Positions 2 to 6,233 of a stretch of DNA of 64,000 nt are shown piece by piece. The DNA is from Escherichia coli phage phiS: sequence record PP449093.1; one strand, given 5' to 3'. The notes beneath the pieces are model-generated. The model was not told the DNA's origin and searched no databases. It saw only the letters and a program-made list of their open reading frames with translations. The number at the start of each line of letters is the position of its first letter. Positions within the stretch are counted from its first letter, which is position 1. Both the position numbers and the translations under genes were made by a program.

Positions 2-958
2 CGCGGCAACTGTCTTGATATGAAAGAAAAGAATCCTTTGCGATTCAATGGTTATAATGTCGGCAATATGTATGGTATGGCGTGGCGACGCAAACCGATT
101 CATCCACACGGTGAAATCAAAATTAAGCGCGTTAAGAGCAAATATACACATACATTTAAGCACCCGTGGGTAGAAGACTTTACGCCAACCAATGAAACAG
201 AAGACCGTTTATGTGCTATCTGGCGTGGTATGCGTTATGAAGAGTTTGATTGTATTCTGGTAGCAGACCACTGGAAGACTCAATCTAATTTTGTTAATGA
301 TGCATATTGCTTGTGGGGATTCCAGGAATGGGTAGATAGTGGTTATTTCGATTATCTGCTTGATAGTGATTATCTGGGCGGTGACATTTTAGCACCGGAT
401 ACCACGATCTTTGTTAGTATGGACGTAGACACATCAAGCCCTAAAGACGATGAGGAATATGTATATCGCCAGAAGATTTGGGAAGACCAGTTACAAAACG
501 TGATTGAACAAATTAAAAACAATCCAACAGATCGCCGGATCATTATTGACTCATGGAACGTACAAGGAACACATAATGCTGTATTAGGTGTATGTCATCC
601 TTTCGTGCAATTCTATGTCAATGAAGGTAAACTGTCTTGTATGTGGTTTCAGCGAAGCGTAGACAGCTTTTTGGGCTTGCCCTTTAACGTCGCCAGCTAT
701 GCGCTGTTAACTCACATCATAGCGAAAATGTGTGATCTTGAGGTAGGAGAACTGATTTTCTCTGGTGGAGATACTCACATTTACAAAAACCACTTTGATC
801 AAGTTATGGAACAGTTAAGCCGTGTTCCGTTTGATAAACCAACAATTGAGTTGCCGGAATTTAAATCTTTAGATGAGATATTGACAAAGACTCCGAAAGA
901 CTTTAAAATTCACAACTATCAAAGCCATCCAGCGATCACAGCTCAAATGGCAGTATAA
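2..958 (+). CDS. td: Thymidylate synthase, 5' end truncated by window edge; carries a ~125-aa insertion relative to E. coli ThyA/T4 Td between the GxxYGxxWR motif and the DRR motif
   Basis: Frame open from base 2; motifs NVGNMYGMAWRR, TDRRIIIDSWN, CHPFVQFYV (catalytic Cys), FLGLPFNVASYALL, GDTHIYKNH and C-terminal HPAITAQMAV match the ThyA family. Confidence 0.85.
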   Translation, partial: RGNCLDMKEKNPLRFNGYNVGNMYGMAWRRKPIHPHGEIKIKRVKSKYTHTFKHPWVEDFTPTNETEDRLCAIWRGMRYEEFDCILVADHWKTQSNFVNDAYCLWGFQEWVDSGYFDYLLDSDYLGGDILAPDTTIFVSMDVDTSSPKDDEEYVYRQKIWEDQLQNVIEQIKNNPTDRRIIIDSWNVQGTHNAVLGVCHPFVQFYVNEGKLSCMWFQRSVDSFLGLPFNVASYALLTHIIAKMCDLEVGELIFSGGDTHIYKNHFDQVMEQLSRVPFDKPTIELPEFKSLDEILTKTPKDFKIHNYQSHPAITAQMAV

Positions 959-1028: not shown

Positions 1029-3272
1029 ATGATTAAAAATGTTGTTAAGTCTTCCGGTCTGACTGTTCCGTTTGAAAAAGAAAAAGTAATGAAAATTCTT
1101 GAAGCGGCAGCCGAAGGTCATAACGTTGATCCATATGAATTGTTTGATATGGTTGAACCACTTCTGACAGAAGGTATGTCTACCAATGATATCCAGAAAG
1201 TATTGATTAAGGTCGCAGCAGATAACATTACTGTAGAAACACCAGATTATCAATATGTAGCAAGTAACCTTGCAATGTTCGCGCTTCGCAAATCAGTATA
1301 CGGTCAATTCCAACCGATTGATTTTTATAGCCATATTGAGCGTAATATTGCAACCGGAAAATATGATCGCGAAATTCTGCAAAAGTATTCCCGCGAAGAA
1401 GTGGAATATCTGGAGAAATTCATCGATCATAAACTTGATTTTAAAATGACCTACGCTGGTGCGATGCAGTTAAAAGAGAAATATCTTGTTCAGGATCGCA
1501 GCACTAAGAAAATCATTGAAACACCGCAGTTTGCGTATATGCTGATCGGTATGTGCTTACATCAAGAAGAGACAGAAAATCGACTTGAACATGTGATTGA
1601 TTTTTATAATGCTGTTGCGAATAAGCAAATTTCTCTGCCTACTCCGATTATGGCGGGTGTGCGTACCCCGACACGACAATTTAGTTCGTGTGTGGTTATT
1701 GAAAGTGATGACTCATTGCAGGGCATCAACGAAACAGCAAATGCAATCATCAAGTATATTAGTAAGCGTGCTGGTATCGGTATCAATGCTGGTATGATTC
1801 GCGCGGAAGGATCTAAGATCGGGCATGGTGAAGTTCGTCATACTGGCGTTATCCCATTCTGGAAACATTTTCAGACTGCCGTTAAGTCATGCTCACAAGG
1901 CGGTATTCGTGGCGGGGCGGCGACTCTCTATTACCCAATGTGGCATTTAGAGTTTGAAAGTCTTATTGTGTTGAAGAACAACAAAGGGGTAGAAGATAAC
2001 CGCATTCGTCATCTTGATTACGGCGTACAGATTAATAACCTGATGGTAGAGCGATTCCTTAAACGGGATTACATTACTCTGTTTAGTCCAGATGTTGCAG
2101 GTGGCTTGTTGTGGGATCTGTACTTCCGAGATGAGGAAGGTTTCCGCCAGCTTTACGAAAAACTGGAAAAAGATCCGAGTGTTCGTAAAACTCGTGTTAA
2201 AGCCGAAGACCTGTTTTTAGCGGTAGCAATTGAACGTTTTAACACTGGTCGAATCTACCCAACATTCACAGACAACATGAACAATCACGGGGCGTTTATT
2301 CGTAATGTAGCACCAATTAAACAATCTAACCTGTGTTGTGAAATTGCTCTGCCAACAAAACCGATGGGTCGTGATGATTCAGAAATTAGCCTATGTACTT
2401 TGGCAGCATATGTTTTAGGTAATTTCGATATCGAAAATATGGAAGAAGTAGAACGCATTGCTATGGTTATGGTGCGTGCACTTGACAACCTGTTAGATTA
2501 TCAGGATTATCCTGTAGAACAAGCTCTGACAGCCAAAAAACGTCGCTCTCTGGGTGTTGGTGTTACTAACTTTGCATCATATCTAGCAGATAATTTCTTC
2601 ACATATGAAGACGCTAACGAGTTTACGCATAAAACGTTTGAACGCTTGCAATATGCTCTGATTAAGGCTAGTGTGCGACTGGCTAAAGAGAAGGGTGCTT
2701 GCGAACTGATGCACGAAACACGTTATGGTCGCGGTGAACTGCCTATCGACTGGTACAAAAAGACAGTAGATGAACTGGTTGATCCGGTGTATGAGATGGA
2801 TTGGGAAGAACTGCGCGAAGACCTGAAAAAATATGGCATTCGTAACAGTACACTTTCGGCGCTGATGCCGTGTGAGTCGTCTTCTCAGGTATCTAACAGC
2901 ACAAACGGTATTGAACCGCCTCGCGGGATTGTATCGGTTAAAGGATCGAAAGAAGGGCAATTTAATCAGGTTATTCCGAACGTAGAGAATAATGCTGATG
3001 TTATTGACCTGCTTTGGACACTGATCAAGAAAGGTAACAAGCCTTATCTGACACTGGCAGCGATCATGCAGAAGTTTGTAGATCAGGCGATTAGTTCCAA
3101 TACATCCTATGATCCAAGCACTTATAAGACTGGTAAAGTCGATATTGCTGATGTGTTAGATGATATGTTGTTCGCTCAACATTACGGTCTGAAAACCCTG
3201 TATTATGCGAACGTTCGCGACGGTGCAGATGGTACGGAAGACGCTAGCGAGTGCTCATCTTGCAAGCTGTAA
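1029..3272 (+). CDS. nrdA: Ribonucleotide reductase class Ia large subunit
   Basis: 747 aa; N-terminal ATP-cone-like segment, C-terminal CESSSQVSNSTNGIEPPRG active-site region; RBS GAGGTAA before ATG; position td-nrdA-nrdB as in T4. Confidence 0.95.
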   Translation: MIKNVVKSSGLTVPFEKEKVMKILEAAAEGHNVDPYELFDMVEPLLTEGMSTNDIQKVLIKVAADNITVETPDYQYVASNLAMFALRKSVYGQFQPIDFYSHIERNIATGKYDREILQKYSREEVEYLEKFIDHKLDFKMTYAGAMQLKEKYLVQDRSTKKIIETPQFAYMLIGMCLHQEETENRLEHVIDFYNAVANKQISLPTPIMAGVRTPTRQFSSCVVIESDDSLQGINETANAIIKYISKRAGIGINAGMIRAEGSKIGHGEVRHTGVIPFWKHFQTAVKSCSQGGIRGGAATLYYPMWHLEFESLIVLKNNKGVEDNRIRHLDYGVQINNLMVERFLKRDYITLFSPDVAGGLLWDLYFRDEEGFRQLYEKLEKDPSVRKTRVKAEDLFLAVAIERFNTGRIYPTFTDNMNNHGAFIRNVAPIKQSNLCCEIALPTKPMGRDDSEISLCTLAAYVLGNFDIENMEEVERIAMVMVRALDNLLDYQDYPVEQALTAKKRRSLGVGVTNFASYLADNFFTYEDANEFTHKTFERLQYALIKASVRLAKEKGACELMHETRYGRGELPIDWYKKTVDELVDPVYEMDWEELREDLKKYGIRNSTLSALMPCESSSQVSNSTNGIEPPRGIVSVKGSKEGQFNQVIPNVENNADVIDLLWTLIKKGNKPYLTLAAIMQKFVDQAISSNTSYDPSTYKTGKVDIADVLDDMLFAQHYGLKTLYYANVRDGADGTEDASECSSCKL

Positions 3273-3280
3273 AATAAGTG

Positions 3281-3309
3281 TTGACGCGGGGAGAAATCCC
3301 CGCTATAAT
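3281..3309 (+). promoter_or_regulatory. sigma70-type early promoter with stem-loop in spacer (PeSL-like): TTGACG - 17 bp - TATAAT
   Basis: TTGACG 3281-3286, inverted repeat GCGGGGA gaaa TCCCCGC 3286-3303, TATAAT 3304-3309. Confidence 0.6.
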
Positions 3310-3341
3310 ACAACCATCAAAAACAAGTGAGGATTTTTATT

Positions 3342-3509
3342 ATGACCAAATTAAAATGTGTTGCTGTAGATTTTGAGCTAGCTGATAGCTTTGTTGTCGG
3401 TGATGTATATGATGCTCGACATGATGGGGCTTGCTACTACGTTGAGGATGAATATGGCGTAGAATGGGCTATTCTTCCTGATGATAAATGCTTTGAGGTT
3501 GTAGGATAA
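3342..3509 (+). CDS. Hypothetical small protein (55 aa)
   Basis: ATG preceded by GAGGA RBS; downstream of PeSL-like promoter. Confidence 0.35.
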   Translation: MTKLKCVAVDFELADSFVVGDVYDARHDGACYYVEDEYGVEWAILPDDKCFEVVG

Positions 3510-3682
3510 TGGCTACTGTATGGTTATTGATTGCAATCAGCAATTCAATGTATAATTACGGAAATATGTCAAGCATTGAGTTTGCAACAAAGCAGGATTG
3601 CGTTAAAGCTCGCGAGGTTATCCGCGAAGACAATAAACGCTTTATGAATCTGTACTGTGTTGAAAAGCAGAAGGTGAACTAA
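3509..3682 (+). CDS. Small membrane-anchored protein, tandem paralog 1 (57 aa)
   Basis: Not in the ORF track (<60 aa); MATVWLLIAISNSMY hydrophobic N-terminus; TAATG start-stop overlap; paralog of 3682..3849. Confidence 0.4.
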   Translation: MATVWLLIAISNSMYNYGNMSSIEFATKQDCVKAREVIREDNKRFMNLYCVEKQKVN

Positions 3683-3849
3683 TGGCTACATTATGGTTAT
3701 TGCTTTCCGTTAGTGTTGGTGTGTATAATAAAGGCACGGTCACTGGTGTAGAGTTTACATCTCATCAAAGTTGTTTTGAGGCTTTGCGGGAACTACAACA
3801 GGATAGCGAAATAAACAGAAATACTAAGTTCTTTTGTGTTAAAAAGTGA
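3682..3849 (+). CDS. Small membrane-anchored protein, tandem paralog 2 (55 aa)
   Basis: MATLWLLLSVSVGVY N-terminus, same architecture as 3509..3682; TAATG overlap. Confidence 0.4.
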   Translation: MATLWLLLSVSVGVYNKGTVTGVEFTSHQSCFEALRELQQDSEINRNTKFFCVKK

Positions 3850-3918
3850 TAGTGAGGTGAATTAATCCTTCTTCTGGATACCTGATAAATAATGGTATAC
3901 AGAAAAGAGGATTTATTC

Positions 3919-4566
3919 ATGAACTTACAAAAACTACACGACGCAATCATAGAAAAAGCAAAGATGAGAGGAACCGTTGAAGGATATAAGGAAACACATC
4001 ACATTTTACCGCGATCTATGGGTGGCAGTGATGAAGTCGATAACCTGATTGATTTGACAGCAAAAGAACATTTTGTTATTCATCACCTGCTAGCAAAAAT
4101 TCATGGTGGACCTATGGCGCAAGCATTTGGTATGATGTGTTTGGCAAAAAATGCTAAGACCAATAAAAGAGATTATGTTGTTTCGTCTAGGGTATATGAA
4201 CAAGCTAGGGTACTGATATCTGAACAAAGAAAGGGTAAGCCTATGAAAGAAGAAACGCGAAGAAAGATTAGCGAATCTTCAAAGGGTGTATTGAAATCAG
4301 AAGAAACAAAAGCTAAAATGCGTAAACCAAAAACAAAGGAGCACGCGTTAAACATTTCAAAAGCTAGAATGGGAAGTAAAAATCCTATGTTTGGTAAACC
4401 ATCACCAACTAAAGGAATACCACATAGCGAGGAAATGAGAAAGCTGATTGCACAAAGGACAAAGGAAGCAACGATGGCAGATCCTTGTCCGCATTGCGGT
4501 AAAATTACCAATAAAGGCAATGCTCTACGATGGCACTTTGATAACTGTAAAATGAGGAATATGTGA
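3919..4566 (+). CDS. mobE: HNH homing endonuclease between nrdA and nrdB (MobE-like)
   Basis: HNH core HHILPRSMGGSDEVDNLIDLTAKEHFVIH; repeated NUMOD3-like K/R-rich segments; RBS AAGAGGA before ATG 3919; stop overlaps nrdB ATG; same position as T4 mobE. Confidence 0.75.
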   Translation: MNLQKLHDAIIEKAKMRGTVEGYKETHHILPRSMGGSDEVDNLIDLTAKEHFVIHHLLAKIHGGPMAQAFGMMCLAKNAKTNKRDYVVSSRVYEQARVLISEQRKGKPMKEETRRKISESSKGVLKSEETKAKMRKPKTKEHALNISKARMGSKNPMFGKPSPTKGIPHSEEMRKLIAQRTKEATMADPCPHCGKITNKGNALRWHFDNCKMRNM

Positions 4567-5760
4567 ATGGGAAATACGGTATTTAATCGTGAACATGTTG
4601 ATATTATGAATGAACCGATGTTTCTGGGTAGCGGTTTAGGTATCGCTCGTTATGATATTCAGCGTCATCAAGTATTTGAAGAATTAATTGAAAAATCTCT
4701 GTCATTTTTCTGGCGTCCAGAAGAGATTTCACTTGCAACTGACCGCATTCAATATCTTAATATGGGTGACGTTGAAAAGCGTTTCTTTACTGAAAACTTG
4801 AAGTATCAGACATTACTTGATTCTATTCAAGGTCGCGCACCGTCCGCAGCATTTGGTCCAATTGTATCTGATCCAACTCTCGATACATGGTTACAAACAT
4901 GGACATTCAGCGAAACGATTCATAGCCGCAGTTATACTCACATTATGCGTAACTGTTTTATTGATCCGGCTAGTGAGTTCGACCAGATCATCGATAACCC
5001 TGCTATCATGAAGCGAGCGGAATCTATCGGGAAATATTATGATGATGTTCTTTATTGGATTCGTAAGTATGAGAATGCAAAAGAAGATCTCCGCTATTGG
5101 GAAGAAGAAGTTCTCCACCACTATTGGGAAGAACGAGACGATCAGACAGAATTAGATGATGCAAGAAGATTTTTTGAAGATACAAAACGAGATCTGATGG
5201 CTTCGATTTATCTGTGTGCACACTGCGTAAATGCACTGGAAGCAATTCGTTTTTATGTGTCCTTTGCATGTACTTTCAGCTTTGCCGAACGTGGTTTACT
5301 GGAAGGTAACGCGAAGATCATGAAATTTATTGCGCGTGATGAACAACTTCACTTAAAAGGCACACAATACATTATTCGTCAATGGCAAACGGGGGTTGAT
5401 GGTGATGAGTGGAAACAGATTGCGGAAGAACTTGAAGGCGAAGCAACGAAAATCTTTCTGGATGTTGTCGAGCAAGAAAAAGAATGGGTAGACCACCTAT
5501 TCGCAATGGGGGCAATTCCTAACCTGTCACCGGAAATTCTGAAAACCTATGTAGAATACCTGGCAGATTCCCGTATGCGCGCCGCCGGACTGAAAAGCCC
5601 GTTTAGTGTTCGTCGTCATCCGTTACCGTGGATGCGTAAATGGTTGAACTCTGACGAAGTACAGAATGCAGCGCAGGAAGTAGAGATTATGTATCTGGTA
5701 TCTCAGGTTAATACCGATTTAACAGACGACGACTACAACCGATTCGGGAAATATCTATGA
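4567..5760 (+). CDS. nrdB: Ribonucleotide reductase class Ia small subunit; no intron evident
   Basis: 397 aa continuous ORF; di-iron ligand motifs (EALEAIRFYVSF, ARDEQLHL); C-terminal acidic tail. Confidence 0.95.
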   Translation: MGNTVFNREHVDIMNEPMFLGSGLGIARYDIQRHQVFEELIEKSLSFFWRPEEISLATDRIQYLNMGDVEKRFFTENLKYQTLLDSIQGRAPSAAFGPIVSDPTLDTWLQTWTFSETIHSRSYTHIMRNCFIDPASEFDQIIDNPAIMKRAESIGKYYDDVLYWIRKYENAKEDLRYWEEEVLHHYWEERDDQTELDDARRFFEDTKRDLMASIYLCAHCVNALEAIRFYVSFACTFSFAERGLLEGNAKIMKFIARDEQLHLKGTQYIIRQWQTGVDGDEWKQIAEELEGEATKIFLDVVEQEKEWVDHLFAMGAIPNLSPEILKTYVEYLADSRMRAAGLKSPFSVRRHPLPWMRKWLNSDEVQNAAQEVEIMYLVSQVNTDLTDDDYNRFGKYL

Positions 5761-6233
5761 TATATTTTGTCGATTTAGATTTTACGATCACAGATCCAAC
5801 GCATCGACTAGCAAAGATGCCAACCGAAAATCTTGATAAAGTCGAGTCGTGGATCGAATATAACAAGGCATGTGGGGGAGATTCCCCCATTTACGATGTA
5901 ATTCGTGTTATTAATGCTCTTTCCGACAACGGGCATTTGATTTACATCCTCACCGGACGAAGTTCACATGCTTACATGGAAACAATTGATTGGTTAATTT
6001 CTAACGGGGTGTGTTTTGATAAAATCTTTATGAGAGGCCGTACCGATTCCCGTAAAGACTATCACATCAAATTAGAGGTAATTAAATCCTTTGATAAAGA
6101 TGAAGTTGTCGGAGTCTTTGAGGATAACCCAGAAGTGATTAAAGTTTTGCGTGAAAATGGTTATCGTGTCTTTGACGTAGGAAATCACAAAGATAAGACG
6201 CGAGCGGATATTGCAAATCACGGTCATGATTAA
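5757..6233 (+). CDS. HAD-superfamily phosphatase-like protein
   Basis: N-terminal DxD motif in VDLDFTITD (HAD motif I); ATGA overlap with nrdB stop. Confidence 0.5.
   Translation: MIYFVDLDFTITDPTHRLAKMPTENLDKVESWIEYNKACGGDSPIYDVIRVINALSDNGHLIYILTGRSSHAYMETIDWLISNGVCFDKIFMRGRTDSRKDYHIKLEVIKSFDKDEVVGVFEDNPEVIKVLRENGYRVFDVGNHKDKTRADIANHGHD

Follow-up and report, generated by a model that had tools for sequence, protein, structure and literature searches.

In the region between nrdA and nrdB of an RB49-like T-even phage (genus Krischvirus, Straboviridae), we found a pair of small genes which, judged from the selection acting on their reading frames, are genuine paralogs under purifying selection. 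Their products look like compact soluble cytoplasmic domains of about 55 residues, for which a beta-beta-alpha-beta fold is predicted. A third small ORF is coupled to the pair at its 5′ side. The explanation that we favor is that the three ORFs make up a coupled early cassette and that the two paralogs are soluble dimers or binders with an accessory role. We consider this explanation, taken as a whole, to have an even chance of being right.

The window (the whole stretch of DNA analysed, 64,000 nucleotides) has the local gene order td, nrdA, three small ORFs, a mobE-like HNH/NUMOD3 endonuclease gene and nrdB (Table 1). The region 3250-3950 was matched at 90-97% identity by 58 phage records, nearly all of them Krischvirus of Escherichia or Shigella. 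The initial annotation had described two back-to-back ORFs of 57 and 55 aa with TAATG coupling, and both are present exactly where it placed them. The protein sequence of ORF1 begins MATVWLLIAISNSMY and that of ORF2 begins MATLWLLLSVSVGVY. The TAA stop codon of ORF1 (3680-3682) shares one base with the ATG of ORF2 (3682-3684), and a Shine-Dalgarno sequence, AAGGTGA, lies 4-5 nt 5′ of this ATG. The junction from ORF0 to ORF1 is also a TAATG overlap, although ORF0 was absent from the initial annotation. As the three ORFs are joined by such overlaps, their sequence indicates that ORF0, ORF1 and ORF2 are a single translationally coupled cassette. ORF0 encodes an acidic product with a pI of 4.05, three cysteines and a weak match to DUF7244.

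Table 1. Features of the td-nrdB region, in window coordinates.
Feature	Coordinates	Strand	Evidence
td	20-958		
nrdA	1029-3272		
PeSL-type element: sigma70-type early promoter with a stem-loop inside (candidate)	3281..3309	+	promoter scan, fold, conservation
ORF0, 55 aa, acidic, phrog_16302, first gene of the cassette	3342..3509	+	E=2.3e-41, dN/dS 0.15
ORF1, 57 aa, PHROG 5579, = RB49p232	3509..3682	+	E=5.5e-24, pLDDT 90.6, dN/dS 0.06
ORF2, 55 aa, PHROG 5579, paralog of ORF1, = RB49p231	3682..3849	+	E=2.8e-21, pLDDT 93.8, dN/dS 0.13
mobE-like HNH/NUMOD3 homing-endonuclease cassette, separate from the pair	3867..4566	+	phrog_655 E=3.5e-57, NUMOD3 3.5e-9
nrdB, downstream gene	4567..5760	+	

The two ORFs were also correctly recognised as a tandem pair of paralogs. 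ORF1 and ORF2 are 36% identical, with 67% positives (E=3e-15). Conservation of the reading frames in related phages, the check that had been suggested for them, was found as well. Across 11 Krischvirus genomes, the dN/dS ratios (Nei-Gojobori method) were 0.06-0.15 in the annotated frames of the three ORFs (Table 1), compared with 0.9-2.0 in the two shifted frames. Both ORF1 and ORF2 are present in 52 Krischvirus records. The annotated Krischvirus proteins are 96-100% identical to ORF1, and that of phage KFS-EC is 100% identical.

The initial annotation had further stated that the pair was missed by the ORF track. This holds for the track which that reader was given, but from the RB49 genome record onward both ORFs carry the annotation 'hypothetical protein'. 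ORF0 corresponds to RB49p233 of the RB49 reference genome, directly before the two listed in Table 1, and the three are likewise annotated in most relatives. ORF1 and ORF2 are not new; they are catalogued hypothetical proteins and members of PHROG 5579. What is added here is a confident fold prediction for a family of uncharacterised phage proteins, a set of invariant residues that can be mutated (F25, C31 and C50), the reading of the tandem pair as a lineage-specific duplication that collapses through unequal recombination, and a recurrent, non-universal neighborhood of RNR and thymidylate synthase genes.

Residues 2-53 of ORF1 aligned to positions 1-52 of the 52-position PHROG 5579 profile, and ORF2 matched the same family over its full length. 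The catalogue labels this family 'unknown function'. We built a HMMER profile from the two paralogs and searched 1.84 billion cluster representatives with a cut-off of E<=1e-3. Among the 50 representatives obtained, 47 were genuine relatives of 51-113 aa with the same layout, and three were spurious repeat proteins. PHROG 5579 was matched by 43 of the 49 aligned family members. In this 49-sequence alignment, F25, C31 and C50 were invariant and W5, L7 and G18 nearly so; all six residues are found in both ORF1 and ORF2. None of the 49 members matched a Pfam model at E<=0.1, ORF1 and ORF2 included, and these two proteins also had no match among the NCBIfam and PADLOC models. A sequence search of the PDB returned no relative of either, and a literature search returned nothing on PHROG 5579 or on DUF1482, a family considered below.

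Krischvirus accounts for essentially all occurrences of the family in cultured phages, with few exceptions. Enterobacter phage SDFMU_EhYP (OQ884031.1), a Koutsourovirus of the Autographiviridae, has a homolog 49% identical to ORF1. One Achromobacter phage is a further exception, and weak matches came from an Erwinia jumbo phage and a few others. The homolog in SDFMU_EhYP is a 56-aa ORF, beginning MNTVWLLIAISSGSYNRG, located at 2644-2814 of L003 and overlooked by the annotation of the record; it sits between a primase/helicase-like ATPase gene and a DNA polymerase gene. We also scanned nucleotide sequences with a degenerate DNA pattern for W-[LI]-L-x-x-[IVM]-S-x-G-x-Y-N-x-G. In viral contigs the pattern was found only in Krischvirus, and in metagenomes six of the 31 matches were true members. 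Prophage copies were not found with this pattern in 185,579 bacterial genomes, where all 57 matches were false: 53 corresponded to a single unrelated Xanthomonadales protein and four were scattered chance matches.

The copy number of the family gene varies among T4-like phages. A T4-like metagenomic contig (L113), whose NrdA, NrdB and Td are 84%, 79% and 57% identical to those of the window, contains a single family member. This member lies 7 nt 5′ of nrdB and shares 47-53% identity with ORF1 and ORF2. ORF0 is absent from this more distant contig. It appears from these comparisons that the position between nrdA and nrdB is old and that the duplication is specific to Krischvirus. We also noted that, within 1753-5883 of the same contig, nrdA is interrupted by a gene for an I-HmuI/MobE-like endonuclease, an arrangement also present in Aeromonas phage Aeh1.

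The tandem pair would have arisen by local duplication, and unequal recombination at the shared 5′ ends could collapse it again. The 5′ ends of ORF1 and ORF2 share 21 identical nucleotides. Phages FL20 and G37-3 have one chimeric copy, in which the MATV of ORF1 is followed by ORF2 sequence, and such a copy is the expected product of unequal recombination within these 21 nt. One metagenome contained a 44-aa chimera of ORF1 and ORF2. ORF0 is disrupted by a frameshift in FL20 and by a nonsense codon in phage JEP8. Given the single-copy phages and the disrupted ORF0, at least one copy of the pair, and ORF0, is dispensable in nature, as far as these genomes indicate. In JEP8 (L111), the otherwise invariant cysteine of ORF1 is changed (C31F) in the same genome as the premature stop of ORF0; the cassette may be decaying in this phage, or these changes may be errors of sequencing. 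A tandem PHROG 5579-like pair of its own is present in L011, a metagenomic phage unrelated to T4, at 2046-2243 and 2240-2437; the two genes have a GTGA overlap, and the second copy is without the YN-G motif and Phe25. From its sequence, this pair shows that tandem duplication recurs in PHROG 5579-like genes.

A promoter scan detected a near-consensus sigma70 promoter (score 11/12) between the stop codon of nrdA and ORF0. Its -35 box, TTGACG (3281-3286), is separated by 17 nt from the -10 box, TATAAT (3304-3309). Between the two boxes is a 7-bp stem, formed by GCGGGGA (3286-3292) and TCCCCGC (3297-3303) with a GAAA loop, which folds at -21 kcal/mol (z=-4.2). The promoter and stem-loop were invariant in 10 Krischvirus genomes, and the synonymous sites of the adjacent ORFs differ at 11-21%. 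The PeSL (promoter-early stem-loop) cassettes of RB49 and phi1 proved in experiments to be strong promoters and attenuators (Arbiol, Comeau and Krisch 2010, PMC2839356). Here too, an intergenic sigma70-like promoter with a G/C stem-loop is located directly 5′ of small genes of unknown function. However, the element in the window is surrounded by a conserved block of nucleotide-metabolism genes, not by a hyperplastic region, and the second flanking PeSL is absent. The nrdA-nrdB locus has no occurrence in PMC2839356, and the element at 3281-3309 fits a PeSL-type element at a locus which that paper does not mention. Most likely, ORF0, ORF1, ORF2 and nrdB are transcribed early from this promoter, which stands just 3′ of nrdA; the cassette leads into nrdB. 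In relatives that are free of the endonuclease, nrdB begins 15 nt after the stop codon of ORF2, so that its co-transcription with the cassette is probable.

We predicted the structures of both proteins by AlphaFold2 with an alignment of 29 sequences. The models were confident (Table 1), with a pTM of 0.72 for ORF1. The topology common to the two is a strand at residues 3-11, a strand at 20-25, a helix at 28-42 and a strand at 46-54. The first strand covers residues 3-11 in ORF1 and 5-11 in ORF2, at a pLDDT of 87-92. According to these models, the hydrophobic N-terminus is predicted to be a buried strand of a three-stranded sheet packed on one helix, and not a membrane helix. Residues W5, L7, F25, C31 and C50 would form the core on the helix side. 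The first strand (V-W-L-L-I-A-I) seems to be apolar on both faces, one face of the sheet would be left uncovered by the single helix, and Tyr49 and Val51 of the third strand would lie on this uncovered face. An open face of this kind, next to a strand apolar on both sides, would be a probable interface for homo- or heterodimers or for clamping a partner. The pair Cys31/Cys50, on the helix side, might be structural, or might be related to redox or metal chemistry. Both the dimers and the function of the cysteines are deduced solely from secondary structure and conservation. The likeliest role for such a protein would be that of a non-essential cytoplasmic accessory binder, modulating a host or phage protein of DNA-precursor synthesis or replication.

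Structural comparison added no characterised relative. Against the PDB, Foldseek gave matches at E>=0.3 only, and the neighbors in a viral library were all uncharacterised small phage proteins. A phage protein of the DUF1482 family was among the structural neighbors, at rank 39 with a TM of 0.72. DUF1482 (PF07358), represented by the E. coli prophage protein YebW, resembles ORF1 and ORF2 in its similar size, its hydrophobic N-terminal strand followed by another strand, and a 'T-x-x-x-C' at the start of the helix. Nevertheless, ORF1 and ORF2 did not match its model at E<=10, the hhalign probability was 1.3%, and there was no Pfam match in the 49 family members, while YebW, as a control, matched the Pfam model at 5e-36. 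DUF1482 was rejected as the family of these proteins, and is itself without a known function.

We compared the genomic neighborhoods of the family in about 11 lineage groups. In three of them the family gene is held in a nucleotide-metabolism cluster. The first is the arrangement nrdA-X-nrdB, where X is the family gene, in Krischvirus and contig L113. The second contains the arrangements ThyX...X-131 aa-RNR and RNR...X, with an RNR just 22-28% identical. In the third, X is between thymidylate synthase and DHFR genes, with a glutaredoxin gene nearby. In two other groups the family gene is beside ligase, primase-helicase or polymerase genes, and in the remaining six it lies among unannotated or unrelated early ORFs. 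An all-against-all BLASTP of the neighbors at 10 loci revealed no conserved partner gene other than RNR. The gene orders indicate that the nucleotide-metabolism neighborhood is recurrent, not universal. Should this neighborhood have a functional basis, the family would offer an inexpensive, testable way to study how phages tune dNTP supply. The complete 44.6-kb genome of the Koutsourovirus, which has the closest relative outside the T4-like phages, contains no RNR and no thymidylate synthase. Therefore, on the gene content of this phage, the family cannot depend strictly on an RNR encoded by the phage.

It is possible, although we regard it only as a tentative alternative, that the family proteins are early binders of a host factor or of a defense system, serving host takeover or anti-defense, and that the nucleotide-metabolism neighborhood is incidental. 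The family has the profile typical of such proteins: they are some 55 aa long and stand behind an early promoter, their copy number varies, and they evolve fast compared with the neighboring genes. The family is also patchily distributed in unrelated phages (Straboviridae, Autographiviridae, an Achromobacter phage and many metagenomic contigs), and in many lineages the gene is in arrays of small early ORFs. However, known anti-defense proteins were similar in generic fold only, and PADLOC, which models the defense systems themselves, gave no match. Moreover, divergent T4-like phages have kept the position between nrdA and nrdB, an unusual feature if the accessory gene were there purely by chance.

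A dedicated partner of RNR seems unlikely for the family. The proteins would then be cysteine-dependent dimers, co-expressed with nrdB, that regulate, assemble or maintain NrdA/NrdB or the complex of dNTP synthesis. The location between nrdA and nrdB, 7-15 nt 5′ of nrdB in two T4-like lineages with the protein identities given above for L113, is in favor of this idea. So are the occurrence of the gene, in another phage group, 1-3 genes away from a class I RNR that is unrelated, its place between thymidylate synthase and DHFR near glutaredoxin in a third, and the two invariant cysteines. On the other hand, the homolog in the Koutsourovirus persists at 49% identity in a genome without RNR, and eight other lineage groups have no RNR neighbor. 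The proteins have neither a CxxC nor a four-cysteine ferredoxin motif, and none of the models for thioredoxin, glutaredoxin, NrdI and ferredoxin was matched. FL20 and G37-3 have lost ORF1, and the ORF1 of JEP8 has the substitution C31F. An identity as a thioredoxin/glutaredoxin or a YfaE-type ferredoxin was rejected, as there are only two cysteines, 19-21 residues apart, no Pfam match, and a beta-beta-alpha-beta fold. A bolder version, in which the class Ia RNR of the phage (and possibly that of the host) has in this family a small subunit or chaperone not recognised before, a Cys31/Cys50 redox or metal dimer that aids the activation or regulation of NrdB and is co-transcribed with nrdB in T4-like phages, would be a long shot.

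The initial annotation regarded the two proteins as membrane-anchored peptides (possibly regulators or exclusion peptides), each with a single N-terminal hydrophobic helix and a short soluble tail. We give this reading, with the helix as a transmembrane segment, very little chance: hydrophobicity is highest at the N-terminus in both proteins (best 9-residue Kyte-Doolittle window 2.4-2.5), but the apolar run extends over 9-13 residues only, the 19-residue maxima of 0.61 (ORF1) and 1.07 (ORF2) are below the membrane-span threshold of 1.6, polar Ser, Asn and Gly follow the run directly, flanking basic residues are absent, and AlphaFold2 builds the segment in both paralogs as a strand inside the domain. 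As for exclusion peptides, the searches of Pfam, NCBIfam and PADLOC gave zero matches, and no Imm-, Sp- or holin-type model was matched. T4 Imm and Sp, which are also small proteins of early phage genes and hydrophobic at the N-terminus, carry full-length transmembrane segments. Such a segment was not seen in ORF1 or ORF2, and no sequence similarity to Imm or Sp was detected. A Sec signal peptide was also considered and found to be unlikely, because a basic n-region is lacking (there is no Lys or Arg in the first 16 residues of ORF1, and the first one in ORF2 is K17) and because the segment is a predicted strand, whose removal would destroy the fold.

It had also been suggested that the pair might be cargo of the adjacent mobile endonuclease. 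The mobE-like gene is at this site in only three of the 58 related records (SSG23, SFHK24 and PTE-Eco09), and therefore the ORFs, which occur together in many more records, are not its cargo. RB49 has the same order of nrdA, three small ORFs and nrdB, and at this locus the window differs from it only by the endonuclease cassette after ORF2. In RB49, which is free of the endonuclease, nrdB starts 15 nt beyond the stop codon of ORF2; homology to such genomes ends at 3866, within the start codon of the ancestral nrdB. Therefore, to judge from this alignment, the cassette was inserted from 3867 onward at that codon, downstream of the pair. The membrane and the endonuclease-cargo readings can both be dropped, and we return to the coupled cassette of soluble accessory proteins as the preferred explanation.

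The insertion has altered the beginning of NrdB, which in the endonuclease-bearing genomes starts with MGNT in place of MS. The endonuclease ORF extends over 3892-4566. An AGAGGA site precedes the ATG at 3919, and translation probably starts there rather than at 3892. Phage G37-3 has a different HNH-type ORF of 179 aa at the same spot. nrdB is a known target of T4 MobE (PMC2988022), and by analogy the ORF of G37-3 fits an insertion hotspot beside this target. A separate peculiarity was seen within NrdB of the window, which has a unique partial tandem duplication of nine residues at about 5095-5121, RYWEEEVLHHYWEERDD; the same stretch reads RYWEERDD in SSG23, RB49, FL20 and G37-3.
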